In this document: positions 50,652 through 63,693 of the stretch, one piece after another | Numbering within the stretch: the stretch's first letter is position 1 | How the letters are laid out: the number at the start of each line of letters is the position of its first letter | IMG/VR virus record: IMGVR_UViG_2541047543_000003 | DNA from: a virus | Lineage: Duplodnaviria; Heunggongvirae; Uroviricota; Caudoviricetes | DNA length: 64,000 nucleotides | Direction: 5' to 3' (one strand) | Position numbers and translations under genes: made by a program | The notes under the pieces: model-generated | Seen by the model: the letters and a program-made list of their open reading frames with translations, nothing else | Databases searched by the model: none | Told to the model about the DNA's origin: nothing

Positions 50652-50655
50652 AAAG

Positions 50656-50732: not shown

Positions 50733-50738
50733 TAAGTT

Positions 50739-50814: not shown

Positions 50815-50821
50815 ATTAAAA

Positions 50822-50897: not shown

Positions 50898-50902
50898 AAA
50901 TG

Positions 50903-50978
50903 TGGAGCACTGTGGCAGATTTGAACTGCCGAATAATGGATTTGCAATCCACCCTCTTAACCACTTGAGTAACAGTGC
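50903..50978 (-). tRNA. tRNA-Cys(GCA)
   Basis: GTGGA-TTGCAAA-TCCAT, U73. Confidence 0.93.
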
Positions 50979-50979
50979 A

Positions 50980-51055
50980 TGGTGCATCCTACTGGTCTCG
51001 AACCAGTGACCTCTTCTTTGTAAGAGAAGCGCTCTCCCAACTGAGCTAAGGACGC
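50980..51055 (-). tRNA. tRNA-Val(TAC)
   Basis: CTTCT-CTTACAA-AGAAG. Confidence 0.95.
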
Positions 51056-51060
51056 GTAAC

Positions 51061-51136
51061 TGGTGGAGGCAAAGGGAATCGAACCCTCGACAACTGACTT
51101 GCAAAGCCAGCACTCTACCTACTGAGTTATACCCCC
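51061..51136 (-). tRNA. tRNA-Ala(TGC)
   Basis: CTGGC-TTTGCAA-GTCAG, G3:U70. Confidence 0.95.
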
Positions 51137-51140
51137 AAAA

Positions 51141-51216
51141 TGGTGCCTCGAAGTGGAGTTGAACCACTGACGCGAAGATCTTCAATCTTCCGCTCTACCA
51201 ACTGAGCTACCGAGAC
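51141..51216 (-). tRNA. tRNA-Phe(GAA)
   Basis: GAAGA-TTGAAGA-TCTTC, CCA end. Confidence 0.95.
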
Positions 51217-51220
51217 AAAT

Positions 51221-51296
51221 TGGATGCGAGAGAGGGAATCGAACCCCCGACCTCCAGGATATGAACCTGGCAAGCTAACCGCTGCTCTATCTCGCA
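51221..51296 (-). tRNA. tRNA-Met(CAT), initiator-like
   Basis: As 49507 but U1:A72 paired. Confidence 0.88.
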
Positions 51297-51299
51297 AAC

Positions 51300-51376
51300 T
51301 GGTGGAGATGGAGAGAATTGAACTCCCGACATGCAGCCTATGAAACCGCCGCTCTAACCAACTGAGCTACATCTCC
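51300..51376 (-). tRNA. tRNA(CAT), elongator Met or Ile2
   Basis: Copy of 49586. Confidence 0.85.
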
Positions 51377-51382
51377 AAAATA

Positions 51383-51458
51383 TGGAGCCTAGAGGCGGAT
51401 TCGAACCCCCGACCTGCTCATTACAAGTGAGCTGCTCTCCCAACTGAGCTATCTAGGC
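51383..51458 (-). tRNA. tRNA-Thr(TGT)
   Basis: Copy of the Thr gene. Confidence 0.95.
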
Positions 51459-51459
51459 A

Positions 51460-51536
51460 TGGTTCCCCTTGCTGGACTTGAACCAGCGACCACATGATTA
51501 AAAGTCACATGCTCTAACCAACTGAGCTAAAGAGGA
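51460..51536 (-). tRNA. tRNA-Lys(TTT) type A
   Basis: Copy of 50021. Confidence 0.93.
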
Positions 51537-51574
51537 ATTATTTCTGAAGCACTCTCGTAAAAGCACTTGAGAAA

Positions 51575-51650
51575 TGGCACTGCCAACGAGGATCGAACTC
51601 GTGTTACAAGCTTGAAAGGCTTGTGTCCTAACCAACTAGACGATAGCAGC
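51575..51650 (-). tRNA. tRNA-Glu(TTC)
   Basis: Copy of the Glu gene. Confidence 0.93.
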
Positions 51651-51654
51651 GCAA

Positions 51655-51731
51655 TGGTGTGTCGGGCAGGAATCGAACCTGCGACCTACGGGTTAAAAGC
51701 CCGTTGCTCTAACCTACTGAGCTAACGACAC
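51655..51731 (-). tRNA. tRNA-Lys(TTT) type B
   Basis: Copy of 50216. Confidence 0.95.
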
Positions 51732-51735
51732 AAAG

Positions 51736-51812
51736 TGGCGGGTGATCTAGGACTTGAACCTAGCACCTGTTGGTTAACAGCCAACTGCTCTAACCAGATG
51801 AGCTAATCACCC
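51736..51812 (-). tRNA. tRNA-Asn(GTT), first gene of the array
   Basis: GTTGG-CTGTTAA-CCAAC. Confidence 0.95.
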
Positions 51813-52008
51813 ATAATTTATAAGACAACTAAAATCTAATTGCCTTATAAATTATTTTTATCTCTAAAAATAATTCAAGGTCGCCTTGGTTGCAAATCAA
51901 ACTATTCCATTAAATTTGGGTGAAATGGTGTTGATTTAGCGACCTAACCCGAATCAAGATTACAAACATTTATATTTATATTCTCAATCCGAATTTTACA
52001 ATCCAAGT

Positions 52009-52020
52009 TGTTAAAGAACA
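52009..52020 (-). promoter_or_regulatory. boxA-like antitermination element
   Basis: TGTTCTTTAACA on the minus strand, one mismatch to rrn boxA TGCTCTTTAACA, directly after the attenuator U-tract. Confidence 0.65.
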
Positions 52021-52115
52021 AAAAAGCCCAGTGAAACTTAAGGAAGTCTCACTGGGCTAATCATAGCTTATGTGTAGTTTGAGACTTCCGCCTCAACCAC
52101 TTTTAAGTATGAGGC
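52020..52115 (-). terminator. attenuator B (proximal): mutually exclusive hairpins plus intrinsic terminator
   Basis: S1 GCCTCA 52110-52115; S2 TTGAGGC 52090-52096; S3 GGAAGTCTCA 52080-52089; antiterminator partner TGAGACTTCC 52042-52051; 13-bp terminator with U-tract 52020-52058. Confidence 0.85.
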
Positions 52116-52118
52116 AAA

Positions 52119-52244
52119 TCAAGTTGTAATTTCGATCTTATTATCCACGTTCATTTTTTTCGCACAGCAAATATCAGCCGCAATTGCGTTAAACATCGCA
52201 TCGCACTTCTCAATTTTTACTGTCGTAAATGTCGTGATAAACAT
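52119..52244 (-). CDS. leader peptide B, 41 aa: MFITTFTTVKIEKCDAMFNAIAADICCAKKMNVDNKIEITT
   Basis: RBS AGGATTTTATT-ATG; uses exactly the 11 amino acids of the downstream tRNA array; stop codon directly before attenuator B. Confidence 0.85.
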   Translation of the reverse strand: MFITTFTTVKIEKCDAMFNAIAADICCAKKMNVDNKIEITT

Positions 52245-52276
52245 AATAAAATCCTGATAAATGGTTTTTTTAATAC

Positions 52277-52369
52277 AAAAAAGTCAGCTTAGCTATCGCC
52301 TCGCTGACTCTATACAAGAAAATCTTGAAATCTTTGAGGCAACCCTCAAAGATACAAATATCCTGAAGG
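52277..52369 (-). terminator. attenuator A (distal)
   Basis: S1 CCTTCAGGATA 52359-52369; S2 TATCTTTGAGG 52344-52354; S3 TTGCCTCAAAGA 52331-52342; terminator AGTCAGC..GCTGACT plus U-tract 52277-52309 containing GAGGCGA, complementary to S3. Confidence 0.75.
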
Positions 52370-52370
52370 T

Positions 52371-52475
52371 TTAAATATTGTTTTTACAGTCAAATTTCTT
52401 GTCTGTATTCTTCTCACAGGCAAACATATTGTCTGTGTTTGTTTCAATCGTATTTTTAGCGATGATGATAAACAT
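52371..52475 (-). CDS. leader peptide A, 34 aa: MFIIIAKNTIETNTDNMFACEKNTDKKFDCKNNI
   Basis: CAGGT RBS; uses only 10 of the 11 array amino acids and none outside that set. Confidence 0.8.
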   Translation of the reverse strand: MFIIIAKNTIETNTDNMFACEKNTDKKFDCKNNI

Positions 52476-52535
52476 AACATTACCTGTGAGTTAAAAAGTA
52501 GTTTAAGTGTTAGGCTCTTGCCTTCCGATGAGTTA

Positions 52536-52565
52536 ATAATAAACCTAAATGTTTTTTCAAGTCAA
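52536..52565 (-). promoter_or_regulatory. sigma70-type promoter of the leader A / leader B / tRNA array transcript
   Basis: TTGACT-18-TATTAT on the minus strand. Confidence 0.55.
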
Positions 52566-52641
52566 CACTTAATTTTATCTTTTTTATGTTTTTTTGGTTA
52601 AAAAAAGAAAGAGGGCTTAAAAACCCTCTTTATTCAATCAC

Positions 52642-53742
52642 TTACAAAACTTTATTTTTTGCGTTTTTTTCACCAAACTTATAGTTTTTCAACTTGAAGT
52701 TGTTTTGTAGTCGCTCTTCCAACACTCCCTCGTCATTAAAAACTAACTCTTTCCCTTCATAATACCAGGTAGATGTTCCACCTATTGGTTGAGAAAGATC
52801 ATATTTAACCGATGGGTCAAACAACTTATAAGGATTAAATCTGGTAGATTTTGAATGCTCAGTGCGGTCAAATTGATAGTTGTATTCTACTCTTTCTGGC
52901 GCACCTAGAGAAAGAAACACTTCAACCTTGTTCATACCATAATTAATTTCGCTAGACTTAATGCTGGAGTGGTGAGCCTTATGGACTAAAGGAGACTTCA
53001 ACGGATCTTTGTATACAATTCTATTGATATCAAAAGGAACATTTACCCTTTCACCATCGTCAAGCCTAACCACAAAACTAAACTGTGATTCATCTAATCC
53101 ATACCCCGTATTTAACGAGTAATCAATTTTTTCAACTTTTAGGGGTTGGTTATGCGGTACTCTAATGGTATCAGAGCTGTTCGTTCCATATACTGAGGTA
53201 TTTGTTTTATCAGCTCCTCGCCCTAAGACATAAATCGCCTTACCCGCATGTTCTTCAGCGGCTTTCAAGTCTGAATTATGGATTAACTGTAGTTGTGATT
53301 GCATTTGTCTAAATGGAAAAACACCATCCCTATCATCATTATTCTTATCAAATACTGATGCAAAATTTCCGAATTCAGGAATAACCACTTCAATGGATTT
53401 ACAATTATCCAAAACACCAGAATAAACACGATAGTGTCTAAGCTTACCAGGCTCATTAGGATCTTCATCTGTTTTTTGAATAAAACTAGTTGTATCGATT
53501 TTTAAATCACGACCATAAATATCTGATTCGGTTAGAGGTGTCTTTTGATATCTTTCATACAAGTATGAATAAGAGTCTTGAGGAAGATTATTCATTCTAT
53601 TATTGAACTTGAGTTCGGCAGAGACATTCCCCGCTTCGAACTCAAGCCCACGAATAACTTTGTAATTGCATTCGCTTGCGAATGCTGTAGATGAGATGAC
53701 GCCAATAGCTAGGGCTATAGTCGTTTTCAGAAATTTATTCAT
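52642..53742 (-). CDS. secreted hypothetical protein
   Basis: Signal peptide ...STAFA; C-terminal GMNKVEVFLSLGAPERV...WYY (SmpA/BamE-like pattern). Confidence 0.7.
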   Translation of the reverse strand: MNKFLKTTIALAIGVISSTAFASECNYKVIRGLEFEAGNVSAELKFNNRMNNLPQDSYSYLYERYQKTPLTESDIYGRDLKIDTTSFIQKTDEDPNEPGKLRHYRVYSGVLDNCKSIEVVIPEFGNFASVFDKNNDDRDGVFPFRQMQSQLQLIHNSDLKAAEEHAGKAIYVLGRGADKTNTSVYGTNSSDTIRVPHNQPLKVEKIDYSLNTGYGLDESQFSFVVRLDDGERVNVPFDINRIVYKDPLKSPLVHKAHHSSIKSSEINYGMNKVEVFLSLGAPERVEYNYQFDRTEHSKSTRFNPYKLFDPSVKYDLSQPIGGTSTWYYEGKELVFNDEGVLEERLQNNFKLKNYKFGEKNAKNKVL

Positions 53743-53800
53743 TGAATTACCCGTTTATTATTAATTTGAGTAATATAATGGCATAAATAAACTTCCAATT

Positions 53801-54607
53801 CTAGGAATTAATAACCAACTCTATTCTTTTTTGCATATCTAAAGAAACGTTGATGCCGTTACACTGTAACATGTTCATCATATCTCTGATTAGCAATACC
53901 GCATCACTTTCCACCTTGTCTGAAGATGTAATAACTTCACTATCAATCTCAGTATCAGGAGAAAGGTCTGTTACGGTACAGGAGAAAGCTGTAGCAAGCT
54001 TAATTAGTAATTCATTATTTACAGGAGCTTTACCATTAATAATTTGGGAGAAACCCGCTTGCGTTTTGAGTCCAAGCTTTGACTGACAGAATTCTTGTTG
54101 AGTCATACCTGTCATATCTTGGTATTCCTGCCATCTCATTTTAATGTTTTTAGCTACCTTTTTCATTTTTTCTGAGCTTAAACCACATTCACTTGAGCGC
54201 TTTTCTTTTAAGAAGCTTTTAAACTCTGCATGATTGAAATCATACTTGATCATTTGAGGCTCAACATCCAGTCCAGAAGCAATTTTATCAATTACACTAT
54301 CACCGAGCGGAAGTGTGCCTTTTAAATAGGCTGAGAAGTTTGAAGTAGTAGTCCAACCAATGCTTTTACAAAAAGTGCTACGTGTAATATTTTCCCTTTC
54401 TGAATATTGCTCCCAAAGAAGATTTAAGCTTTCTCTGGCTTTATCCTGAATTTTTGATTCAATAAGTGACGCTGAATCAGACTTACTCAGGTACAATGCA
54501 TTTAAGATAGAGTCTACTGAACGATTTGTAGACATTTTATTCTCTTTTATTAGAAAATCTTTTACTTCACCACTTTGTATTGCTAAAGCTTTCATTAAAT
54601 TCACCAA
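53801..54607 (-). CDS. transcriptional regulator with two Cro/CI-like HTH domains
   Basis: ITRSTFCKSIGWTTTSNFSAYLKG...KIASGL and MTQQEFCQSKLGLKTQAGFSQIING...KLATAF. Confidence 0.75.
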   Translation of the reverse strand: MVNLMKALAIQSGEVKDFLIKENKMSTNRSVDSILNALYLSKSDSASLIESKIQDKARESLNLLWEQYSERENITRSTFCKSIGWTTTSNFSAYLKGTLPLGDSVIDKIASGLDVEPQMIKYDFNHAEFKSFLKEKRSSECGLSSEKMKKVAKNIKMRWQEYQDMTGMTQQEFCQSKLGLKTQAGFSQIINGKAPVNNELLIKLATAFSCTVTDLSPDTEIDSEVITSSDKVESDAVLLIRDMMNMLQCNGINVSLDMQKRIELVINS

Positions 54608-54670
54608 TCTCTTTAATTAATTAATTAATTAATAAATATTTATTCGTTATTCATTTTAAATTTTTGGGGG

Positions 54671-55135
54671 TTAGTACGGTAGATCGTCTTTGTATTCGAA
54701 CATATTCTCCCCATCTCTCAACGGGTTTTGTTGTTGATATTCTCGATAGTCAGATTGCTGAGTCTGGTATCGTTGCTGTTGCCCTGCTGTATTGCGTAGT
54801 GCTTTTGATTCATTAATGTATTTAGCACCAAGAACAACTTTCATATCAATTTGGTTGCAAGAAAATCCAAGACCTACAAATATATCTGTATTTATTAAGT
54901 AATGCTTTCCAGATAGTGTGACAATGGCACCTATCCCTATAAGCCCTTCTTTTATTACGTTTTCAAGGCTATTTCTGTTCGGAGAAAAAATATTGCACTG
55001 ATACCATTGATCTACAGACCGACCATTAATGAAGTCATTGACACAAACTGGAACTTTTATAAAGTATCCATTTTTCCCTTGTTTTATTTCTGGGTGCTTT
55101 CCAATTCTACCTAATATTACTGTATTCTGAGACAT
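54671..55135 (-). CDS. ssb: single-stranded DNA-binding protein-like
   Basis: VILGRIGKHPEIK, QWYQC, GAIVTLSGK; Q-rich linker; acidic tip YKDDLPY. Confidence 0.7.
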   Translation of the reverse strand: MSQNTVILGRIGKHPEIKQGKNGYFIKVPVCVNDFINGRSVDQWYQCNIFSPNRNSLENVIKEGLIGIGAIVTLSGKHYLINTDIFVGLGFSCNQIDMKVVLGAKYINESKALRNTAGQQQRYQTQQSDYREYQQQNPLRDGENMFEYKDDLPY

Positions 55136-55434
55136 TAATTACCTACTGCATTAACTAATTGTAATTTAATTGGCTCATGTTTCTCTTCAATCTTTTGGAT
55201 TTCACTAATCATGCTAAGAAGCTCAACAGATTCACTTCTTAAGGTTTTAGGTACACCTTTAGATTGAATAAGTAGGTTTTTAATTAAATCAGAAGATTCA
55301 ACCAACAGGTCATTAAAAAGCTGAGCCTTTTCACTATCAGTTAATAATGATAAAAAATTGCCTATTTCATTGATGCTGGCTTTACCTGAGTTAGTCTCAG
55401 AGATGCTGCTCACTAGCCTTAACTTATTGTCCAT
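55135..55434 (-). CDS. hypothetical protein
   Basis: 99-aa ORF coupled to the ssb-like gene. Confidence 0.6.
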   Translation of the reverse strand: MDNKLRLVSSISETNSGKASINEIGNFLSLLTDSEKAQLFNDLLVESSDLIKNLLIQSKGVPKTLRSESVELLSMISEIQKIEEKHEPIKLQLVNAVGN

Positions 55435-55591
55435 ATTAAATATTTACTTTGATTTTTTGATGCTTTAGAGCATTATAACGAGATAAATATTTTCTGCAAC
55501 CCCCTGATATAAAAATTATTATATGCATTCTTGTGCTCAGTATACATAAAATGATAAAATATAATCAGTTAAACAATAATAAAGGCAAAAA

Positions 55592-56287
55592 ATGATGACA
55601 AGCTCAAAAAACACAATCATAGCTAAGCTAAGCACCACGCAATCAAACGTGAGAAGTGTTCGTATCAATGTGCATCCAAAATACAATGAGACAGACTCTG
55701 GATATCCAATAACGATTTACGAAACGCTAAACAGTAGAAATCTACCACCACAGAAAGCATTTCTAAATCTTAAGGTTGGAGGAAAGGATCAATGGCTATC
55801 TATTAGCACATCAGCTCGCGCAACAAATGAGAATGGTGAGTACAAGCTAGCACCAAAGAGGAATGAACAAGGCTGTCTTGTAAATAGAAAAGGCGATGTT
55901 GTTCAAACTGAAGAAGAAGCAGCAAGATCTTTTATTTATGAAAAAGAAGATGGTCGTAGCTTTAACATAGAGCTAGGTACATTATCTATTCAAAATACAA
56001 ACTCTGAGGGTCAGCAGACCAAATGCACTCTGATTAAAGCTAAACTTTACAGCGATAAAGAAGCTATTGCTATCCGACAAATGATGAAGGAAGCTAAAAA
56101 TGCTCCTGAAGAGTACAGGCAGGCGCAATATGATAAGATTTCCGATTACAAGCGTAATCATGGTGACTGGAAAACCTTATTTATTTCAGAAGGTCATGAT
56201 TTCCTGAGAGGTTTAGGGTTTGAAGTAAGAGAAAACGTTCCTAAAAACCAACCTGGTAATGACTATAAAGATGACATTCCCTTCTAA
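55592..56287 (+). CDS. hypothetical protein with SSB-type C-terminal tip
   Basis: Ends NDYKDDIPF. Confidence 0.75.
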   Translation: MMTSSKNTIIAKLSTTQSNVRSVRINVHPKYNETDSGYPITIYETLNSRNLPPQKAFLNLKVGGKDQWLSISTSARATNENGEYKLAPKRNEQGCLVNRKGDVVQTEEEAARSFIYEKEDGRSFNIELGTLSIQNTNSEGQQTKCTLIKAKLYSDKEAIAIRQMMKEAKNAPEEYRQAQYDKISDYKRNHGDWKTLFISEGHDFLRGLGFEVRENVPKNQPGNDYKDDIPF

Positions 56288-56330
56288 TGATTATTATAGC
56301 GAATAAAAAAAGACTGCATTGCAGTCTTTT

Positions 56331-57074
56331 TTACATCGCCAGTGATGAAATTCGATTGTCTTTTTTCTTTTTTGTTTTTAACTCGTAGACATTTCTTTTA
56401 TCTATTGTTACCACATTACCGACATTAGCATCTATTTTAGCAAGATCTTCTGTTGTACAAAACATCCAGTCCATATGGTCTTCTTCAATTTGCATGAGTC
56501 CTTTAGAAGAGTACCATTTAAGAAGCTTTTCTCTGCTTTTTTCAGGATTCATTCCTAATGTTCGATACTGGTACGAAGAGCTTAGGTGAGAGCATAGCTG
56601 TAATGGACAAGCTTGAAGCACCATTAAACCAAAGCTTTCCCCGTAGTGCTCAGGGAAAAATTTCAGCAAATATTCACCAAAACCTTTACCCAAAAACCTT
56701 GGCTTAACTTTTAATTCCTTAATAAATATTACATTTCTTTTTATTTCTTTATTTGAATTCTCTAAATGAGATTTAACAGAATCATGAAATTCCAGATCTA
56801 ACTCGTTTGTTCTGTAATCGTAAGTATTATACTTAGAAAGCCATGAGAATGCAGTGGAGAACTCACTATCTGCTGAAGCTGACCTAGACATCACTGATAG
56901 AGAATTCCCTTCTACTAGTAATTTTTCCAGTTCAAAGCACAAAAATTCCACTTCGCAAACCACTTCACCTGTTCCATTTTGCATAAGCTGCGCAACATTA
57001 TTGGTGAGATACCCGTAACTATTTCGAACCTCTGACAAAACAGTAAGCTCTATTTTATTCAAAATGCTTTTCAT
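56331..57074 (-). CDS. GNAT-like protein
   Basis: IKELKVKPRFLGKGFGEYLL (motif A), LLKWYSSKGL. Confidence 0.65.
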   Translation of the reverse strand: MKSILNKIELTVLSEVRNSYGYLTNNVAQLMQNGTGEVVCEVEFLCFELEKLLVEGNSLSVMSRSASADSEFSTAFSWLSKYNTYDYRTNELDLEFHDSVKSHLENSNKEIKRNVIFIKELKVKPRFLGKGFGEYLLKFFPEHYGESFGLMVLQACPLQLCSHLSSSYQYRTLGMNPEKSREKLLKWYSSKGLMQIEEDHMDWMFCTTEDLAKIDANVGNVVTIDKRNVYELKTKKKKDNRISSLAM

Positions 57075-57102
57075 GAATTTATTTATTAATGATTTAAAGT
57101 TT

Positions 57103-57606
57103 TTACTTTTTCAAATAGTCAGAAAATGTTAGTTTTTCAGTTTTTCCTGACGTTGACCAATTTAGAACCCACTTTTCTGAATCTATAATAGGAAAGAAGG
57201 TATCAGCATTCTCAACAACCTCATCAACAACAGTAATCAACAATCGATCTGCTATTGAAATCGATTCTTTATATATCATACCTCCGCCAATAACAAGTAA
57301 TTCTTGGAAATTATTATCGCTATAAACCTTTGTTATTGCTTCTTGAATTGAACTTACGCCGCAAACTGTTGTAAACCCTTTATCTGAAAAAAAACTCTTA
57401 TCCTTTTCACTACAAAGAACAAAGTTGTCTCTATTTTTAAGAGGTGCTGAATTGGGCAAAGAACGAGCAGTCCTTGCCCCCATGATGACGGGCTTGTGTA
57501 GGGTATGGGTCTTGAAAAACTCCATATCTTCTCTGAATGAGAACAGTAAATCATTCCCTTTTCCAATTGCTAAATTTTTAGACACACAAGCGATTAGCGT
57601 TATCAT
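57103..57606 (-). CDS. folA: dihydrofolate reductase
   Basis: LIACVSKNLAIG, EDMEFFK, PVIMGARTARSLP, PLKNRDN, VIGGGMIY, DTFFP. Confidence 0.93.
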   Translation of the reverse strand: MITLIACVSKNLAIGKGNDLLFSFREDMEFFKTHTLHKPVIMGARTARSLPNSAPLKNRDNFVLCSEKDKSFFSDKGFTTVCGVSSIQEAITKVYSDNNFQELLVIGGGMIYKESISIADRLLITVVDEVVENADTFFPIIDSEKWVLNWSTSGKTEKLTFSDYLKK

Positions 57607-58028
57607 TCAATAACCACTCCCTGGTAGTTACTAATTGCATACAGTTGTGTGCCAAGATTATTTTTCTTAATCTCTTTTTTTAGTGATTCTGTTATTTCAG
57701 CACTATAAGCAAATTTACCATTGTAATAAACGTAAGCCCTACCTTGGAACTCATAGGTTAAAATTAACCCCTTAACAGTACCTAACTCCCCAACACCATC
57801 ATGATAATTTAGCATACCAGATGAATCACTATACATTTTTTCATATACTGATATGTTTTCGTAGTCGCCATTTGTTCTAACTTCAAAGTCTGAAATGGAT
57901 AATGCTGCACTTGATAAAAACACTCGGTTTGACAGTCCCGTTAACTCTTTATATTTTGGGTCTGCAAATGAGCTAGTTGAAGCTGTCATAAGCACAATAC
58001 CAGCTATCATCATGTGTTTAAGTTTCAT
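57603..58028 (-). CDS. secreted hypothetical protein
   Basis: Signal peptide ...TSSFA. Confidence 0.65.
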   Translation of the reverse strand: MKLKHMMIAGIVLMTASTSSFADPKYKELTGLSNRVFLSSAALSISDFEVRTNGDYENISVYEKMYSDSSGMLNYHDGVGELGTVKGLILTYEFQGRAYVYYNGKFAYSAEITESLKKEIKKNNLGTQLYAISNYQGVVIE

Positions 58029-58233
58029 TATTATTATTCTCCAATAGTTGTTTTCTTAGTTGTTCTACCTGGTTTATTCTTTCTCTTAACGTTTTATCAA
58101 TGTCTAATGTCTCAGATAATAATGGAGCTACTATATCCACATCTGGATTAGTCATGTTTTTTTCAAATTCTTTATGAATTTCATCTAATCGATTCGATAG
58201 CTTTGAGTAATTTGTTTGTTCTAAACCTGACAT
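58018..58233 (-). CDS. xseB: exonuclease VII small subunit-like
   Basis: Directly downstream of xseA; NYSKLSNRLDEI...PLLSE...LRERINQVE. Confidence 0.6.
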   Translation of the reverse strand: MSGLEQTNYSKLSNRLDEIHKEFEKNMTNPDVDIVAPLLSETLDIDKTLRERINQVEQLRKQLLENNNNET

Positions 58234-58283
58234 TTACTTATTCCTTACATTAGTAAAACAGAATATTACATTCCGTTCAATAT

Positions 58284-59795
58284 TTAATCTTGCTTGCTTA
58301 ATTCGATTCTAGGAAACTCTCGAACTTTTTCAATTTGGTTAATATCAACTCGCACGATACCATCAGACAAGCTCAGTTTAGCTTCGCCTTCTTTTAGATC
58401 ATTCACGCTAGTAACAAGTGTTTCATCCTGGTTAACTAATGAGTATCCCTTATTTAAGATAGCAATAGGGTTGTTCATCATAATCATGATTAGCTTTTCT
58501 TTACGAATATTATCCGCTGAAACAAGAGTGTCTTTTGATATCGAAGATATAGATGTGATTTTTTGGTCAAGAGCGTTTCTTGCTCTCTCAATCACGACTG
58601 CACTGTTATCAATAATTCTTGACACCTTACTGTCCAATGCGCTTTTAGCAAGCAATACGCTTTTTTCGGACAAGCTTATGATCCGTTCGAAATTTCGAGC
58701 ATCCTTCTCTGATGATGAAATGATTACATCTCTAATCATATTTACGACCATCGAAGGTGTTGCACATCTGGTATGTGCAATTTCATCTATAATTGTATTG
58801 TCTCTTTCATGCCCGATACCGCAGAATATCGGCGCATTAAGACATAGCAGCGATTTAGCTATTTCATACTCATTTAAGGCATATAAACCTGCTTTATCAC
58901 CACCACCACGAATCACACATACCGCATCGAATGGATTTCTTTCATGATCAGCATTTATCTTACTCACTGCTGAAGTGATCGTGTTTATGGAGTTATTCCC
59001 CTGGAAAGTTGCAGAATAATAACTGAATTTACATAGACCTAAACTATCCAAAAGTGATGATTGCGTCTGAAAGTCACCCAAGCCAGCAGCCATATCTGGA
59101 GATAGAACTGCAACTCTGAAAAAGTTATTTGGTGCCTTCATTCTCTTGTTGTTAAGAAATATTCCCTCAGATCTTAATCTATCTCTAATTGCATTTAGCT
59201 TTGCTTCCATCTCACCTATAGTAAATGATGGGTTGATATCAATGATGTTCAGACTTAAGCCGTACTTCTCGCTGAACTCAGGTTTTACACAGATAAGAAC
59301 CTTCATGTTATGAGCCAGCTTCATGCCTGTTGAACACTCAAATTTGCTTATAATGTCTTTTCTCTTGCTCCAAATCATACCTCTAGCTTTCGCCAATTCA
59401 GAGCCATTCGAATCATAATCAGAAAGCTCTAGGTACACATGTGAGTTACCAGTAATATTTGAAATTTCAGCAGTAAGCCATGAGCCTTCAGTGAAGGTTT
59501 CTTCCATGAGGTTTTTAATTACACCCAAATATACTGACAAGCTCGATGGCTTATTGCTCTGCTTGTTCAGCATATGCTGAAACTTGGGTGTCCACCATTT
59601 CTTGAAAGCGGTAACATCAATGCCTTTTGGTACGTACCAACAAACAAACGCACCATTACTTGAGTAAGGTAAAGCACCTAGTCTTTTTGCTTCTTCACGC
59701 TCCCCAAATGGGACTTCGAGCCGTAATTTTCTGTCTAGAATCATTGAAATCTCCATTTTTGGTAAATTATACATGAAATCTATCCTGTAAACCAC
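58284..59795 (-). CDS. xseA: exonuclease VII large subunit with N-terminal DUF5710-like extension (start may be ~59756)
   Basis: LEVPFGEREEAKRLGA...WYVP; WLTAEISN..G.SHVYLEL, FDAVCVIRGGG, GIGHERD.TIID.IA....TPS, ILNKGYS. Confidence 0.92.
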   Translation of the reverse strand: MVYRIDFMYNLPKMEISMILDRKLRLEVPFGEREEAKRLGALPYSSNGAFVCWYVPKGIDVTAFKKWWTPKFQHMLNKQSNKPSSLSVYLGVIKNLMEETFTEGSWLTAEISNITGNSHVYLELSDYDSNGSELAKARGMIWSKRKDIISKFECSTGMKLAHNMKVLICVKPEFSEKYGLSLNIIDINPSFTIGEMEAKLNAIRDRLRSEGIFLNNKRMKAPNNFFRVAVLSPDMAAGLGDFQTQSSLLDSLGLCKFSYYSATFQGNNSINTITSAVSKINADHERNPFDAVCVIRGGGDKAGLYALNEYEIAKSLLCLNAPIFCGIGHERDNTIIDEIAHTRCATPSMVVNMIRDVIISSSEKDARNFERIISLSEKSVLLAKSALDSKVSRIIDNSAVVIERARNALDQKITSISSISKDTLVSADNIRKEKLIMIMMNNPIAILNKGYSLVNQDETLVTSVNDLKEGEAKLSLSDGIVRVDINQIEKVREFPRIELSKQD

Positions 59796-59909
59796 TGATG
59801 ATTATAATCAATTGATAAATTATCAATTTTTATCTTTCATACTATATGCTTTTGATGTAGCATTGGTCATTCTTTTAATAAGCTAATAAATATCAAGAGT
59901 AAATAGAAA

Positions 59910-60722
59910 ATGAGCGATAAGTTAAATAAAAAAATCCAAAAACTAAACCTGAAGAAAGATCCAGTAATAATCGACCTGGTTAAGAAAACCGCAATCTCGT
60001 TAGAGAAGAAAGGTATTAATCTGGACAAGGACGCTGCCCGAGTTGCTTTGTGCATGGACTTCTCAGGCAGTATGTATTGGCTAATTAAGAACGGTACTGT
60101 CAGTGAGTTAACACAACGTTCATTGGCTCAAGGGATCGTTATGGATGATGATGGTGATATTGAAGTCTTTGGTTTTGGTTCTGATGCAAAGTACATTGAA
60201 TCCATCAACTCCGACAACTATGTGGAGTACTGTGAGGGTGTTCAGCGAGACATGCCAGATTTCGGTTCAACCTATTACCATAAAGCAATTAATCTAATTG
60301 TAAGTCATTATGACCGCATTGGTTATGATAAACCTGTCTATGTCATTTTCGTAACTGATGGTGATACCTTCAGCAAAACTGCAACTGAGGAAGCACTAAA
60401 GTCCGCTTCAGGCAAGCCAATCTTCTGGCAGTTCATTGGTATTGGTCAAGATGACTACGATCCTAATCAGGTAGATGCCAAAGTTGTGAAGAAACCTGGA
60501 GTAATCGGTCGTTTCCTTGGCGCTAAAGAAAAAGAAGTTCCTAACACTAAGTTTGAGTTCTTAGTTAAACTTGATGAAATGGAAGGTCGCGTGGTAGATA
60601 ATGCTGGATTCTTTGCTGTAAAAGATCCTAAAAGCATGAGTGCTGAGCGCATGTATGATTTGATGCACAATGAATACCCAGAGTGGCTTAAAGAAGTACG
60701 AGCTAAAGGCATTCTTCGCTAA
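59910..60722 (+). CDS. vWA-domain protein (TerF/TerY-associated type)
   Basis: LCMDFSGSM (MIDAS), FVTDGD, PIFWQFIGIG, DNAGFF. Confidence 0.88.
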   Translation: MSDKLNKKIQKLNLKKDPVIIDLVKKTAISLEKKGINLDKDAARVALCMDFSGSMYWLIKNGTVSELTQRSLAQGIVMDDDGDIEVFGFGSDAKYIESINSDNYVEYCEGVQRDMPDFGSTYYHKAINLIVSHYDRIGYDKPVYVIFVTDGDTFSKTATEEALKSASGKPIFWQFIGIGQDDYDPNQVDAKVVKKPGVIGRFLGAKEKEVPNTKFEFLVKLDEMEGRVVDNAGFFAVKDPKSMSAERMYDLMHNEYPEWLKEVRAKGILR

Positions 60723-60787
60723 TTTGTAGATTTAAGCGAACAAAAAGACATGGGGAAGCCCATGTCTTTTTTTATTTCAGTTAATAA

Positions 60788-61312
60788 TTACATTTCAATA
60801 TTGTAAAGCAAAGCCATCTCACCCAGACCCACAACCAACATTTTGTTTTCAAAAATCCTGATAGGGAAAACCTGACCCTCCTTTGTCTGAATGGTATAAC
60901 TGGCGCTATTAGGTAATTCAATTTGCTCTTGGGTGATTTCAGTTATGTTAAAAACCTTGGTTTCTAGTTGAATCTTCTCATTTGATAATTGAATTGCAGG
61001 AGGTAAGCCAAGCTGTGTTTTACCTATTACCATACTATGCGGCTTGAATGAGACTCCAGATTCAGAACTATTAAATGGATTCACAACTACTTGTTGAGCA
61101 ACTACTTGTTGAGATTTTGCGCTAATTGCTATATCTTCATCATTTCTAAATCCATTAAAAAATGCAATTGCTACAAATATATAAAGCACAATAAATGGCA
61201 AACTTGTTATTTGCTCAATAAATACTAACTTTGGGCTTAGTTTCCGTTCCTCTGGTGATGCGCAATCTTCAAAATGACAAAATTTTATTTTATTTTTCAT
61301 AGGTACACTCAT
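60788..61312 (-). CDS. hypothetical membrane-anchored protein
   Basis: Single TM segment. Confidence 0.6.
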   Translation of the reverse strand: MSVPMKNKIKFCHFEDCASPEERKLSPKLVFIEQITSLPFIVLYIFVAIAFFNGFRNDEDIAISAKSQQVVAQQVVVNPFNSSESGVSFKPHSMVIGKTQLGLPPAIQLSNEKIQLETKVFNITEITQEQIELPNSASYTIQTKEGQVFPIRIFENKMLVVGLGEMALLYNIEM

Positions 61313-61805
61313 GTTTAGAATTTGTATGTTATTTTTATTAATTTCTTCTGTTAGCTTCCCTGTCTATCCGCACACTCAAACCAAAGACAAAATTCTAGTA
61401 ATTAAGTCAGAAAGAGTATTACTACTACTGAAAAACAATAAAATTGCTAAAGAGTACAAGATCGCTCTGGGAAAGAATCCTGTCGGAGACAAAGTAAAAC
61501 AAGGAGATAATAAAACACCAGAGGGTAAATATCAAATTGTCAGTAAGAACAGTCAGAGTAAATTTTATCTTAATTTGGCAATAAACTACCCATCTAAGTT
61601 GGATATTAAAGAAGCAAAAAGTCTAGGCGTTAATCCAGGCGGTAATATTGTTATTCATGGCTTACCCAACAAAGCTCCTAGCTTTATTCACGATGAATTA
61701 ATGAGCGAAGACTGGACAAATGGTTGCATAGCTTTACATAACAGAGATATTAAGGATTTGTTTGATTCAGTTCCTGTCGGAACAAGTATCGATATTCTTC
61801 CTTGA
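61311..61805 (+). CDS. L,D-transpeptidase (YkuD) family protein
   Basis: GDKVKQGDNKTPEG, IVIHG, WTNGCIAL. Confidence 0.9.
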   Translation: MFRICMLFLLISSVSFPVYPHTQTKDKILVIKSERVLLLLKNNKIAKEYKIALGKNPVGDKVKQGDNKTPEGKYQIVSKNSQSKFYLNLAINYPSKLDIKEAKSLGVNPGGNIVIHGLPNKAPSFIHDELMSEDWTNGCIALHNRDIKDLFDSVPVGTSIDILP

Positions 61806-61892
61806 CTCTTAGTCTTTGTTTTTTAAAGGTCTTTTAAATTGAATGAACATGCATTAGACATAATCTATTAATGTGGTAAAATTTGCGCCGTT

Positions 61893-62618
61893 TTGACATA
61901 CGACTACGGGTTCCATATGCGCACTTTTGAAGAGATCGGAAATATAGCGATAAATGCATTGCTATCTTATCATTGCTCCCCTGAAAGAATGAAAGTTTCA
62001 AAAGAAGCTACAGTTAGACTGTATCTTAAGAAAGCGCTATCTCGAAAAAAGTACAGCAAAAATTCATGTTATTACCTAAAGTCACTCCTACAAAAAGCTA
62101 CATCATCCTACTCAATGTATAATGTTTTAAGTGGAATTGCTGAAAACTACACTAAAGTCATATCTCATGATAAGAAATTTGATGACATTTGCTTTTACGA
62201 TAGATTTCAATCTTTATTTAAGAAGATGCGTGATCTTGGTTATGAGCTGCATATAGACATTGAAGGTGATTCACTGTTTCTAAACGAAAACAGTAAAGCT
62301 ATGGTGATTTTCAAAAATGACTATATCAATTTAGAACCGTCTGGTGATCTTACTGGAGTTCTTTATGTCACTGTAGTTAATAAATGTATGTATGATTTTA
62401 TTGAATCAGCATTTAACTCAGGTCTATACCCAAAACTCTTCAAAGAGAGTAGTAACGTTAGTAAATTTGAGATTCATCCTAACAACAACCCACCAGCACC
62501 AATTTCATTTATTTCTACAAAGGAAGATTATCTTCATAAACGCCGAGTTATGGCTAATGAGAAATCATTATTTGCTGGCAAGGTAAACCCGTTCCAGTTA
62601 AAAATGAAGAAATCCTAA
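61893..62618 (+). CDS. hypothetical protein
   Basis: 241-aa ORF. Confidence 0.6.
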   Translation: MTYDYGFHMRTFEEIGNIAINALLSYHCSPERMKVSKEATVRLYLKKALSRKKYSKNSCYYLKSLLQKATSSYSMYNVLSGIAENYTKVISHDKKFDDICFYDRFQSLFKKMRDLGYELHIDIEGDSLFLNENSKAMVIFKNDYINLEPSGDLTGVLYVTVVNKCMYDFIESAFNSGLYPKLFKESSNVSKFEIHPNNNPPAPISFISTKEDYLHKRRVMANEKSLFAGKVNPFQLKMKKS

Positions 62619-62626
62619 ATTTTCTG

Positions 62627-62656
62627 TTGACTTTCCTAGACCAAGAATTATAAGCT
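62627..62656 (+). promoter_or_regulatory. sigma70-type promoter of leader C
   Basis: TTGACT (62627) with TATAAG/TAAGCT at 16/18 nt. Confidence 0.55.
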
Positions 62657-62690
62657 TTAATTGTAAACATACATTTTTAAGGATTTTATT

Positions 62691-62759
62691 GTGAAAGCTA
62701 AAACATTTATTACCTCTAAAGTAGGTATCCAGCAACCGTGGCAACAAGCTTATGTGTAA
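62691..62759 (+). CDS. leader peptide C, 22 aa: MKAKTFITSKVGIQQPWQQAYV
   Basis: RBS AGGATTTTATT-GTG (identical to leader B); CAG CAA CCG TGG CAA CAA block matches the downstream Pro/Gln/Trp tRNAs. Confidence 0.85.
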   Translation: MKAKTFITSKVGIQQPWQQAYV

Positions 62760-62845
62760 GTTTTAGCTTTCGCATGGCTAAAACTTAGGTTTTAGCCACA
62801 GGAAAGACACCTAACCCCTGATGGCTCTCCATCAGGGGTTTTTTT
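62760..62845 (+). terminator. attenuator C
   Basis: S1 GTTTTAGC 62760-62767; S2 GGCTAAAAC 62776-62784; S3 GTTTTAGCC 62789-62797; antiterminator AGCCA-CAGG 62794-62802 with CCTG-A-TGGCT 62817-62826; terminator ACCCCTGATGG/CCATCAGGGGT plus U7. Confidence 0.85.
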
Positions 62846-62963
62846 ATGCTTAAAAAATTCAGGTGGAATGAAGTCAACTTATCTCTGCATATCTATGCTG
62901 GAGGGGGTTCTTATGGTTTTGGTGTAAGTGCATGATTTTATTGAAATTTTTTTAATTTTCTTG

Positions 62964-62992
62964 TTGACAGATAAAATGTTCAGGTTTAATAT
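62964..62992 (+). promoter_or_regulatory. near-consensus sigma70 promoter directly upstream of the Pro/Gln/Trp array
   Basis: TTGACA-17-TAATAT. Confidence 0.65.
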
Positions 62993-63016: not shown

Positions 63017-63093
63017 CGGTGAATAGCGCAGCCTGGTAGCGCATCTGCTTTGGGAGCAGAGGGTCGAGAGTTCGAATCTCTCTTCACCGACCA
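63017..63093 (+). tRNA. tRNA-Pro(TGG)
   Basis: TCTGC-TTTGGGA-GCAGA. Confidence 0.96.
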
Positions 63094-63104
63094 AATTACA
63101 TTGT

Positions 63105-63181
63105 TGGGGTGTAGCCAAGTTGGTTTAAGGCAATAGACTTTGATTCTATGATCGGGGGTTCGAGTCCCTCCACCTCAGCCA
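63105..63181 (+). tRNA. tRNA-Gln(TTG)
   Basis: ATAGA-CTTTGAT-TCTAT, U1:A72, G73. Confidence 0.95.
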
Positions 63182-63193
63182 GAACAACAAAGT

Positions 63194-63268
63194 GTAGAGG
63201 TAGCTCAGTTGGTAGAGCCTCGGATTCCAAACCCGATGACGGGGGTTCGATTCCCTCCCTCTATGCCA
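63194..63268 (+). tRNA. tRNA-Trp(CCA)
   Basis: TCGGA-TTCCAAA-CCCGA (31:39 mismatch), G73. Confidence 0.9.
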
Positions 63269-63272
63269 CACT

Positions 63273-63349
63273 CGGTGAATAGCGCAGCCTGGTAGCGCAT
63301 CTGCTTTGGGAGCAGAGGGTCGAGAGTTCGAATCTCTCTTCACCGACCA
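63273..63349 (+). tRNA. tRNA-Pro(TGG)
   Basis: Second unit of the 256-bp repeat. Confidence 0.96.
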
Positions 63350-63360
63350 AATTACATTGT

Positions 63361-63437
63361 TGGGGTGTAGCCAAGTTGGTTTAAGGCAATAGACTTTGAT
63401 TCTATGATCGGGGGTTCGAGTCCCTCCACCTCAGCCA
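63361..63437 (+). tRNA. tRNA-Gln(TTG)
   Basis: Second unit. Confidence 0.95.
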
Positions 63438-63449
63438 GAACAACAAAGT

Positions 63450-63524
63450 GTAGAGGTAGCTCAGTTGGTAGAGCCTCGGATTCCAAACCCGATGACGGGG
63501 GTTCGATTCCCTCCCTCTATGCCA
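63450..63524 (+). tRNA. tRNA-Trp(CCA)
   Basis: Second unit. Confidence 0.9.
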
Positions 63525-63528
63525 CACT

Positions 63529-63605
63529 CGGTGAATAGCGCAGCCTGGTAGCGCATCTGCTTTGGGAGCAGAGGGTCGAGAGTTCGAATCTCTCTTCACC
63601 GACCA
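63529..63605 (+). tRNA. tRNA-Pro(TGG)
   Basis: Third unit. Confidence 0.96.
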
Positions 63606-63616
63606 AATTACATTGT

Positions 63617-63693
63617 TGGGGTGTAGCCAAGTTGGTTTAAGGCAATAGACTTTGATTCTATGATCGGGGGTTCAAGTCCCTCCACCCCAGCCA
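63617..63693 (+). tRNA. tRNA-Gln(TTG)
   Basis: Third unit, two substitutions relative to the other copies. Confidence 0.95.

Follow-up and report, generated by a model that had tools for sequence, protein, structure and literature searches.

Short leader ORFs matching the tRNA arrays behind them on a Vibrio megaplasmid: probable attenuators of tRNA gene transcription

tRNA arrays and leader ORFs in the window

The stretch of DNA analysed (64,000 nucleotides; the window) carries two tRNA arrays, each preceded by one or two short leader ORFs, designated A and B for array 1 and C for array 2. The features of array 1 and its upstream region are the following.

49428..51812, minus strand: tRNA array 1, 28 tRNA genes (Phe, Met, Thr, Ile, Asn, Lys, Glu, Asp, Cys, Val, Ala)
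51813..52019, minus strand: 207-nt spacer from terminator B to the first tRNA; its sole promoter-like match is weak (9/12 at 51878-51851)
52020..52118, minus strand: switch B, with hairpin X 52115-52107/52098-52090, hairpin Y 52100-52090/52085-52074, antiterminator AT 52089-52080/52051-52042 (10 bp) and terminator T 52058-52044/52039-52025 plus U-run
52119..52244, minus strand: leader B ORF, 41 codons, peptide starting MFITTFTT
52245..52255, minus strand: Shine-Dalgarno sequence and spacer of leader B, AGGATTTTATT, identical to that of leader C
52272..52371, minus strand: switch A, with X 52371-52359/52354-52341, Y 52353-52344/52339-52330, AT 52340-52336/52302-52298 and 52332-52328/52310-52306, and T 52311-52298/52293-52280 plus U-run
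52371..52475, minus strand: leader A ORF, 34 codons, peptide starting MFIIIAKNT
52536..52565, minus strand: promoter-like site of the leader A/B-array 1 unit (TTGACT, 18 nt, TATTAT; 10/12 matches)
52608..52631, minus strand: intrinsic terminator of an upstream gene of 366 aa, a 10-bp stem followed by a T-run

The terminator at 52608..52631 insulates the leader A/B unit from the 366-aa gene. After the start codon, every codon of leader A (33/33) and leader B (40/40) specifies one of the 11 amino acids served by array 1. Among the 1288 small ORFs of the window, B ranks first (p = 1.6e-9) and A second (p = 5.4e-8) in enrichment for this set, with the next ORF at 1e-3. In RefSeq relatives leader B is annotated as a hypothetical protein, WP_021485665.1.

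Array 2 and its leader have the following features.

62627..62654, plus strand: candidate promoter of leader C, read from the sequence (TTGACT, 16 nt, TATAAG), abutting the stop codon of the upstream gene
62691..62759, plus strand: leader C ORF, 22 codons, start GTG, with QQPWQQ at 62730-62747
62757..62847, plus strand: switch C, with X 62757-62768/62776-62787, Y 62775-62784/62789-62798, AT 62794-62802/62817-62826 and T 62813-62824/62829-62840 plus U-run
62964..62992, plus strand: second promoter-like site, between terminator C and array 2 (TTGACA, 17 nt, TAATAT; 10/12 matches)
63017..63693, plus strand: tRNA array 2, composed of Pro-Gln-Trp units; the window contains 8 genes, the relative NZ_CP062152 11

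The candidate promoter of leader C is absent from the promoter scan list because its last base is G. QQPWQQ, the longest Pro/Gln/Trp run in any of the window's six frames, is found 270 nt upstream of the Pro-Gln-Trp array; the out-of-set codons of leader C are the first 13, before this run, and the last three (AYV). The first 14 nt of this leader (segment S1, 62691-62704) are complementary to the post-stop segment 62760-62773, a feature present in leader C only. With a ribosome stalled downstream of it, S1 could base-pair with this post-stop segment and favour termination, unless a second ribosome covers S1. The promoter-like site at 62964..62992 is conserved among relatives, the region 62860-62955 being variable, and it could give unattenuated basal expression of array 2, bypassing attenuator C. 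The translations of all three leaders, including MKAKTFIT...QQPWQQAYV for C, agree with those of the initial annotation.

Replicon context and tRNA clusters outside the window

The window is 94–98% identical to four Vibrio parahaemolyticus/vulnificus plasmids of 0.88–0.94 Mb. Whole-replicon tests were performed on the relative NZ_CP062152 (882 kb, 97.7% identical to the window) and on three more relatives. The replicon type in the favoured explanation is a Vibrio megaplasmid of about 0.9 Mb and 37% GC. Listing of the tRNA genes bears out that arrays 1 and 2 together serve 11 + 3 = 14 amino acids with zero overlap. The further clusters expected outside the window were also found: NZ_CP062152, read as a whole, carries 75 tRNAs representing all 20 amino acids. 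On this relative, leaders A and B take the two highest places among 20,732 small ORFs for the array 1 set, with A in rank 2.

A third tight array on NZ_CP062152 consists of 18 tRNAs for Leu, Ser, Tyr and His, and is preceded by two tandem leaders, D1 (MLHSYLHLSYLSLYN) and D2 (MSYLSHLHYSLSYSLLST), each with its own switch and terminator. In-set codons make up 13/14 of the post-start codons of D1 and 16/17 of those of D2. The two leaders take the first and fourth ranks for composition among the 20,732 small ORFs of the whole relative, the fourth with an ATG two codons earlier taken as the start, and D2 is rank 1 for the Leu/Ser/Tyr/His set (1e-9). The 16-residue run of these amino acids in D2 is the longest in the six frames of the 882 kb, and that of D1 (13 residues) the joint second-longest. 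The replicon has three modules of leader and array, which together serve 18 amino acids with no overlap: the 11 of array 1 (two leaders in series, A and B), Pro/Gln/Trp (C) and Leu/Ser/Tyr/His (two leaders in series, D1 and D2).

The six amino acids missing from the window (Leu, Ser, Arg, Gly, His, Tyr) had been grouped as a third array and predicted to lie outside the window behind leaders of their own. This was correct for Leu, Ser, Tyr and His, but the Arg and Gly tRNAs of NZ_CP062152 are found elsewhere, in a loose 4.5-kb cluster and as one lone Gly gene, both leaderless. The loose cluster contains additional copies of Met, Ser, Leu, Asn and Lys tRNAs. Small ORFs enriched in the downstream amino acids were looked for in this cluster and none was found (best p 0.01–0.1). 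By reading, the Arg and Met genes that open the cluster each have promoter-like hexamers of their own in front, and its tRNA-Arg(tct) genes are followed by hairpins. The Arg and Gly tRNAs appear to be separate, unsensed promoter-tRNA-terminator units. The proposal that the whole tRNA set is partitioned into separately sensed modules was to fail if tRNA clusters without matching leaders occurred; the Arg/Gly cluster is such a case, and since this fourth cluster is leaderless the set is incompletely sensed.

Switch architecture

The five leader ORFs (15–41 codons) have AGGA or AGGT 7 nt upstream of the start (A, B, C), GAGGA (D1) or a weak ribosome-binding site (D2), and all are followed, in this order, by hairpin X, hairpin Y, antiterminator AT, terminator T and a U-run. 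The same architecture had been attributed to the leaders in the initial annotation, as four segments; the common order stands, with five segments. In all five leaders the 5' arm of X begins at a distance of −3 to +3 nt from where the stop codon ends, and the energy of X lies between −12.3 and −13.4 kcal/mol in 5/5. A complete X-Y-AT-T chain, in which the helices exclude one another, was identified in 5/5 leaders, versus 5–10% of the shuffled spacers of each; the product of the five shuffle rates is about 1e-6. Intrinsic terminators were listed by the scan for B, C, D1 and D2. Terminator A (from folds, an 8-bp stem, a structured 14-nt loop and a U-run; T hairpin −16.9 kcal/mol) is missing from it because the 14-nt loop is above the limit of the scan. 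The out-of-set residues of A, D1 and D2 are confined to the last three codons (N15 in D1, T18 in D2, S32 in a variant of A), where a stalled ribosome would already cover X.

In equilibrium folds of B, C and D2, X flips to Y when at least 6 to 9 nt from the stop codon are masked (at least 9 nt in B). For A and D1 the equilibrium favours Y over X even with no ribosome mask, so that switching would have to rely on folding order. Real and shuffled spacers were not distinguished by a crude simulation of co-transcriptional folding. The genes downstream of the leaders are tRNA genes only, with no amino-acid biosynthesis operon among them.

Conservation and RNA signal

Across five plasmids, four of the five amino-acid changes in leaders A and B remain in-set (D>A, I>T, D>N, K>E), and the fifth lies 3 codons before the stop. 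Leader C and its promoter are invariant (100%, five plasmids), and the next ~100 nt have 13 variable columns. The relatives are 94–100% identical in these regions and therefore offer no compensatory-change test of the helices: no compensatory changes occur among them, the few changes being in loops or weakening outer pairs.

RNA-seq data of four runs from two studies, all of one related strain, were inspected as contigs. Leaders A and B alone form a separate RNA contig with a k-mer depth of 720–1366, versus 38–73 for the neighbouring contig of the adjacent genes, in contigs that do not define RNA levels. With the same reservation for RNA ends, contigs over A/B begin at 52483-52520, those of two runs extend past terminator B toward array 1 (to 51845 and 51939), and in each of the two studies a contig ends at the base of terminator C (62809 and 62810). 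These data lend weak support to expression of the leaders.

Sequence relatedness of the leaders

The identical 11-nt pre-start sequence reported for leaders B and C was located as two exact copies of AGGATTTTATT, at 52255-52245(−) and 62680-62690(+), abutting the ATG of B and the GTG of C. A search with AGGATTTTATT[AG]TG, which had been suggested as a way to find more leaders, retrieves only B and C on 882 kb: the 11-mer has 4 copies on this relative, and RTG follows only in those of B and C. At one mismatch the 11-mer is at chance level (5 found versus 4.6 expected), and the one-mismatch matches of the pattern lie at the starts of ordinary genes or of a 2-codon ORF.

The claim that the leaders form one family can be taken to mean that all of them, including those of the third array, are paralogues descended by duplication from one ancestral leader. 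We give this only a small chance of being correct. Leaders B and C are identical at 25/31 nt around the Shine-Dalgarno sequence (z = 5.1), including the 11-mer, and have the same codons 5-6 (ACA TTT); the first 12 nt, TTATGTTTATCA, are the same in A and B, and the energies of helix X are nearly equal in all five. B and C are, however, the sole clearly similar pair. B versus D1 gives a marginal 15-nt match (p = 0.037, uncorrected over ten pairs), and all remaining pairs have p of 0.06 or more. A match between A and B was discounted, as it comes only from overlap of the two extracted regions. The early F-I motif is indeed present in the translations of A, B and C, but it is not a family trait: it is absent from D1 and D2, and in A and B it is made of in-set residues. 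In addition, the helices are built from unrelated sequences, the 11-mer pattern retrieves no further leader on the 882 kb, and a non-homologous leader that may do the same job occurs on a Pseudomonas plasmid (see below). The modules have a design in common rather than a sequence, with a ribosome-binding region common to B and C only.

Proposed mechanism and alternatives

We propose that the leaders are ribosome-mediated transcription attenuators placed before accessory tRNA arrays, each array being transcribed when its own codons are decoded slowly, and consider this reading likely. From the observed anatomy, composition statistics, conservation pattern and RNA signal over the leaders we infer that the leaders are translated, that they switch, and that tRNA supply is the physiological signal. 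Each leader would be a short translated ORF built almost wholly from the amino acids of the downstream tRNAs. A ribosome keeping pace with RNA polymerase up to the stop codon would cover the 5' arm of X; Y would then form, terminator T would fold and transcription would end. When cognate charged tRNA is scarce the ribosome would be slowed earlier, allowing X to form and block Y, leaving the 3' arm of Y free to form AT with the 5' arm of T, and polymerase would read into the tRNA genes. Full-text literature searches found no paper describing such attenuators for tRNA genes.

The sensor is unable to separate a shortage of tRNA from a shortage of amino acid: leader-peptide attenuators such as those of trp and his read the level of charged tRNA, in which the two causes are inseparable. 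The same attenuators might accordingly respond mainly to amino-acid starvation (uncharged tRNA), with tRNA output as a by-product or as part of a stress programme instead of a feedback on tRNA supply. The copy number of plasmid tRNAs does not track amino-acid usage of the plasmid (rho = 0.10), in line with such a role. We nevertheless regard a starvation response as rather unlikely, since extra tRNA gives no relief from amino-acid starvation and the exact match between leader alphabet and tRNAs is explained much better by a closed feedback loop acting on those tRNAs.

It is very unlikely that the leaders are chance or untranslated small ORFs followed by hairpins that have nothing to do with the arrays, being ordinary terminators or small-RNA genes: AT-rich DNA is rich in small ORFs (1288 in the window) and the crude folding simulation failed to separate real from shuffled spacers, but five independent leaders each lie directly upstream of the matching array, with composition ranks of 1 and 2 of 20,732 for the array 1 set and 1 for the Leu/Ser/Tyr/His set, in-set substitutions and a complete helix chain in 5/5. 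Equally improbable is that the products are trans-acting small peptides, e.g. toxins or regulators, whose composition reflects that function; leader B is a conserved hypothetical protein in RefSeq, and a trans-acting leader peptide is on record in peTrpL (PMC7298713), yet the peptides have no sequence in common, each matching just the alphabet of its own array, and amino-acid changes are tolerated while in-set.

Comparison with known systems

Multivalent attenuators are known from enterobacteria, as in the leaders of ilvGMEDA (Ile/Leu/Val) and thr (Thr/Ile), besides trpL, hisL, pheL and leuL. The Vibrio leaders resemble these amino-acid operon attenuators in having a short ORF, predicted to be translated, that is rich in regulatory codons for several amino acids, and alternative hairpins with an intrinsic terminator, the choice between which would depend on ribosome position. 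Unlike them, they precede and would control tRNA genes instead of biosynthetic enzymes, would sense up to 11 amino acids with nearly the entire ORF being regulatory, and contain one additional relay hairpin (X-Y-AT-T). Four of the five also differ in having no segment 1, and because of this untranslated RNA should read through in these four. T-box riboswitches work by direct binding of uncharged tRNA, with no translation involved, and regulate aminoacyl-tRNA synthetase and amino-acid genes. The likeness lies in sensing the state of a specific tRNA through a terminator/antiterminator switch, but the mechanism proposed for the Vibrio leaders goes through translation and controls tRNA genes. An Rfam search found no T-box match in the leaders and, with E allowed up to 10, no leader family either; the top hit of leader C was PyrR, at 33 bits, below the gathering score of 54.

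Accessory tRNA arrays on large plasmids have been described in other bacteria. The trn operon of Anabaena sp. PCC 7120 is a long, horizontally acquired and normally silent megaplasmid tRNA array that is induced by translational stress (PMC8421152; PMC10272220); the words "leader" and "attenuat" are absent from PMC8421152. The pMEGA megaplasmids of Enterobacteriaceae (about 1 Mb, up to 208 tRNAs) carry full sets in tight blocks, which have been proposed to counter tRNA-directed defences (bioRxiv 10.1101/2025.09.30.679422). The Vibrio replicon is similar in being a ~1-Mb plasmid with a complete tRNA set and tight blocks; the preprint does not describe regulation of the blocks, and both words are absent from it as well. 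Finally, a 0.9-Mb Pseudomonas plasmid with a 42%-identical xseA carries a Glu/Asp/Arg tRNA array, upstream of which, by eye, lies a leader with REEREDR followed by a GC-rich inverted repeat and a T-run. Going by its sequence, this leader may point to a more general occurrence of the design.

Leaders and tRNA arrays in the window

Two tRNA arrays were identified in the window, each behind its own leader region with small ORFs: leaders A and B precede array 1, and leader C precedes array 2.

Features of the two tRNA arrays and their leader regions (window coordinates)
52631-52608, minus: terminator of the gene preceding leader A
52565-52536, minus: promoter-like site upstream of leader A
52475-52371, minus: leader A, MFIIIAKNTIETNTDNMFACEKNTDKKFDCKNNI, followed by hairpins and a U-run
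52244-52119, minus: leader B, MFITTFTTVKIEKCDAMFNAIAADICCAKKMNVDNKIEITT, followed by hairpins
52058-52025, minus: strong terminator after leader B
51813-52019: spacer of 207 nt separating terminator B from the first tRNA of array 1
49428-51812, minus: array 1, 28 tRNA genes for Phe, Met, Thr, Ile, Asn, Lys, Glu, Asp, Cys, Val and Ala (ARAGORN)
62627-62654, plus: candidate promoter of leader C
62691-62759, plus: leader C, GTG start, MKAKTFITSKVGIQQPWQQAYV
62813-62840, plus: terminator after leader C
62964-62992, plus: second promoter-like site, between terminator C and array 2, near-consensus (TTGACA, 17 nt, TAATAT), directly before the first tRNA
63017-63693, plus: array 2, 8 tRNA genes in Pro-Gln-Trp units (ARAGORN)

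Together the arrays serve 14 amino acids with zero overlap according to ARAGORN, as the initial annotation had claimed. The second promoter-like site of array 2 is conserved in all five plasmids compared, in contrast to the variable stretch of about 100 nt preceding it. Its position between terminator C and array 2 suggests that this array may also have basal, unattenuated expression.

Leader composition matches array content

The 11 amino acids of array 1 have a background frequency of 0.60 in the long ORFs of the window. All post-start codons of leader B (40/40; p = 1.6e-9) and of leader A (33/33; p = 5.4e-8) belong to this set, and the two leaders rank first and second by set enrichment among the 1288 small ORFs of the window, with the third at 1e-3. 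In leader C, the sequence QQPWQQ is the longest run of Pro, Gln and Trp in the six frames of the window; the first 13 and last three codons of this leader lie outside its set, and two Ile codons and one Ser codon occur in it apart from QQPWQQ. A small ORF rich in Leu, Ser, Tyr and His (32397-32495) was dismissed as a chance occurrence, antisense within an ORF of 654 residues. Leader B is listed in RefSeq as a hypothetical protein of 41 residues, WP_021485665.1, on two plasmids (6119-6244 of stretch L001), and leaders A and C carry no annotation in the four Vibrio records viewed.

A third array with matching leaders on a related plasmid

Two 882-kb plasmids of V. parahaemolyticus share 97.7% identity with the window region; identity is 94% with a 925-kb plasmid of V. 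vulnificus and a 939-kb plasmid of V. parahaemolyticus. The rest of the replicon was read from a 97.7%-identical relative, the 882-kb Vibrio plasmid NZ_CP062152, using the whole sequence and ARAGORN, which called 75 tRNAs for all 20 amino acids.

tRNA genes of NZ_CP062152
318230-320577: array 1, 27 genes, same 11 amino acids as in the window
Array 2: 11 genes, Pro, Gln and Trp
406849-408794 (406.8-408.8 kb; 1850-3795 of stretch L002): array 3, 18 genes, Leu, Ser, Tyr and His
472-477 kb: loose cluster of 4.5 kb, Arg, Met, Ser, Gly, Leu, Asn and Lys
495 kb: lone Gly gene

Upstream of array 3 there is a promoter-like site followed by two tandem leaders, D1 and D2 (MLHSYLHLSYLSLYN and MSYLSHLHYSLSYSLLST), and this region is 96–100% identical in the other three plasmids. 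D2 ranks first for Leu/Ser/Tyr/His enrichment among the 20,732 small ORFs of the whole plasmid. Among in-set runs in its six frames, those of the two leaders rank first (16 residues) and joint second (13 residues), and out-of-set residues are confined to the very end of each ORF. Of the five Leu isoacceptor codon classes, four occur in D1 and D2 taken together, as do codons read by each of the three Ser anticodons in the array. The make-up of an array beyond the window thus followed the leader composition as predicted, which shows that the rule has predictive power.

The initial annotation had expected one further array, for Leu, Ser, Arg, Gly, His and Tyr, behind content-matched leaders. This core prediction was borne out by array 3, but the grouping of the six amino acids was wrong, as Arg and Gly lie outside it, and so was the expectation of full coverage, as these two are served by a loose cluster that has no matching leader. 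Neither in the whole plasmid nor in any gap of the cluster could a small ORF with Arg/Gly enrichment beyond chance be identified, which places Arg and Gly outside the sensed system and marks a limit of the composition rule. As read from the sequence, the first Arg and Met genes of the cluster each have their own promoter-like hexamers upstream, and the tRNA-Arg(tct) genes have hairpins downstream. Some amino acids already served by arrays 1 and 3 have further genes in the cluster. Its single tRNA genes are separated by spacers of 400–560 nt (3679-4124, 4523-4931 and 5266-5829 of stretch L003), in which no Rfam match and no convincing ORF was found.

Array 3 combines His with Leu, Ser and Tyr, the three tRNA types that have a long variable arm in bacteria. 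Their collection in one module suggests that grouping may follow tRNA class or shared vulnerability rather than amino-acid chemistry. A tRNA-like element between tRNA-Leu(taa) and tRNA-Ser(gct) (L002 2167-2253) stays under the cut-off for tRNAs, at 26.8 bits, and reaches 34.5 bits with the tRNA-Sec model; a decayed gene for a long-arm tRNA is the probable identity.

Gene number and order of array 1 vary between plasmids that are 98% identical: the window has 28 genes, with repeated Lys-Glu-Lys-Asn units, and NZ_CP062152 has 27, one of which was called as tRNA-Ala(agc). The arrays rearrange quickly and the leaders stay fixed. The copy number of the tRNA genes does not track the amino-acid usage of the plasmid (rho = 0.10).

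Architecture of the predicted RNA switches

By folding, every leader is followed by the same relay of hairpin X, hairpin Y, an antiterminator (AT) and a terminator (T) with a U-run; D1 and D2 each have their own switch and terminator. In all leaders the 5' arm of X starts within 3 nt of the stop-codon end, on either side of it (-3 to +3). Y has one arm in common with X. Both arms of AT are shared, one with Y and one with T, in the latter case with its 5' arm. The helix energies are strikingly uniform, at -12.3 to -13.4 (X), -8.3 to -15.2 (Y), -11.4 to -21.9 (AT) and -16.8 to -24.2 kcal/mol (T). The chain was counted as complete when the 5' arm of T is paired in AT, the AT partner is paired in Y, and the Y partner is paired in X with nucleotides under a ribosome at the stop codon. 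Such a full chain was found in five of five leaders, versus 5–10% of shuffled spacers for each; multiplied together, the five rates give about 1e-6.

In B, C and D2, the equilibrium flips from X to Y once at least 6–9 nt from the stop codon are masked, with the 3' arm of Y just made. In A and D1, the upstream leader of each tandem pair, Y beats X even without a mask, and switching would therefore hinge on folding order. Leader C alone can pair its first 14 nt, start codon included (segment S1), with a post-stop segment, by which an untranslated leader C would terminate; untranslated A, B, D1 and D2 should give read-through.

Two folding approaches were set aside. Greedy co-transcriptional folding without refolding gave a clean switch in A and B only, and was not discriminating, as 10–20% of shuffled spacers were also switch-like. 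When truncated RNA was folded by MFE under a moving ribosome mask, the antiterminator persisted at every ribosome position, because folding order is ignored in this procedure.

Sequence relationships among the leaders

The initial annotation had assigned the leaders to one family, on the basis of a shared 11-mer, an early F-I motif and a common architecture. The 11-mer AGGATTTTATT is indeed found exactly in front of leaders B and C in the window. With one mismatch allowed it does not exceed chance frequency there. The whole related plasmid has four copies, of which only those at B and C are followed by a start codon, and one-mismatch matches are ordinary gene starts or an ORF of 2 codons. In pairwise local alignments with shuffles, clear similarity is limited to B and C, in a stretch of 31 nt at the ribosome-binding site (25/31 identical, z = 5.1); B and D1 share a marginal match of 15 nt (p = 0.037, uncorrected over ten pairs), and the remaining pairs of A, B, C, D1 and D2 show no significant similarity; an apparent likeness of A and B was an artefact of overlap between the two extracted regions. 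The F-I motif (MFII in A, MFIT in B, TFIT in C) consists of in-set residues in A and B, and is absent from the leaders found later, at array 3. Since only B and C are clearly alike and the motif is missing from the later leaders, a single family has no support at the sequence level. The remaining observations of the initial annotation were largely right.

Conservation and expression

Across five plasmids, leaders A and B have accumulated four synonymous and five amino-acid changes. Four of the latter (D>A, I>T, D>N and K>E) stay within the 11-letter alphabet; the fifth, N>S, affects a position three codons ahead of the stop, and a ribosome stalled at that point would already cover X. No variation is seen in leader C, its promoter and its switch among the five plasmids, and the next stretch of about 100 nt has 13 variable columns. 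No compensatory changes in the helices were found at the divergence of these plasmids. The 241-residue ORF upstream of leader C forms a single protein cluster with no distant homologues, and for this reason no diverged leaders were obtained for covariation analysis.

Expression data were available as contigs from four RNA-seq runs of a related strain, from two studies. A separate contig over the leader A/B region alone (52009-52064 to 52483-52520) has a k-mer depth of 720–1366, and the neighbouring contig with adjacent genes (52712-55514) one of 38–73. In two runs the former extends beyond terminator B, as far as 51845 in one and 51939 in the other. At the foot of terminator C, each of the two studies has a contig that ends at 62809/62810 with no loose end; the lack of coverage of 62811-63011 in the runs aligned was not counted as evidence. 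As contigs cannot define RNA ends or levels, this pattern provides only weak hints. The spacer at 51813-52019, covered by the read-through contigs in two runs, contains an inverted repeat, GGTCGC ... GCGACC.

Proposed mechanism and comparison with known systems

Classical attenuation tunes amino-acid synthesis. Ribosome-mediated attenuation is also the most likely mechanism for the leaders described here, which we propose to act on tRNA supply. Any slow-down on array-cognate codons would leave hairpin X free, and polymerase would enter the array; tandem leaders would multiply the effect. tRNA supply itself thereby appears to come under feedback control, and a single leader can report on as many as 11 amino acids simultaneously. 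We tentatively consider the megaplasmid as a possible self-tuning translation-supply system, a reading to which we give somewhat less than even weight. Three independently sensed tRNA modules would each be transcribed only upon slow decoding of their own codons, and the AT-rich plasmid could so keep translating in hosts with a mismatched or anticodon-nuclease-cut tRNA pool, without the cost of constant tRNA overproduction. If true, such feedback on tRNA supply would explain the low-cost carriage of dozens of tRNA genes by giant plasmids, give a direct, testable read-out of the tRNAs that a mobile element expects to run short, and provide compact natural parts to sense decoding speed.

The leaders match no amino-acid leader family or T-box in Rfam, megablast against phage records gave no match, and full-text searches of the literature returned nothing on tRNA genes controlled by leader peptides. 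The accessory tRNA operon of Anabaena is controlled at its promoter via direct repeats, putative sites for a regulator (PMC8421152), and its repressor is named as TrcR (PMC10272220); this promoter-level control differs from the leader-based switches proposed for the Vibrio plasmid arrays. The pMEGA preprint reports arrays of up to 208 tRNAs and describes no leaders.

The closest protein relatives of the plasmid xseA outside Vibrio are encoded on Pseudomonas plasmids of 0.9–1.2 Mb; a search of genome contigs with the xseA-like protein gave no relative. On one of these Pseudomonas plasmids, the 0.9-Mb CP136011 of Pseudomonas sp. (xseA 42% identical), a Glu/Asp/Arg array (within 342300-345000) lies behind a leader with REEREDR, followed, as judged by eye, by a GC-rich inverted repeat and a T-run. 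A Tyr/Phe/Trp/Asn/Cys/His block (within 854300-859400) lies behind a leader with 13 of 28 post-start codons in its set by hand count. These content-matched leaders indicate that the design recurs with another partition, in which Arg is among the sensed amino acids, whereas it is not sensed on the Vibrio plasmid.

The Vibrio plasmid has a GC content of 37% and was typed as non-mobilizable. The region between its arrays 1 and 2 (53800-62620) carries DNA-metabolism genes, for an xseA-like nuclease, dihydrofolate reductase and single-strand-binding protein, and genes for uracil-DNA glycosylase, IHF alpha and NrdG follow beyond array 2 (L001).
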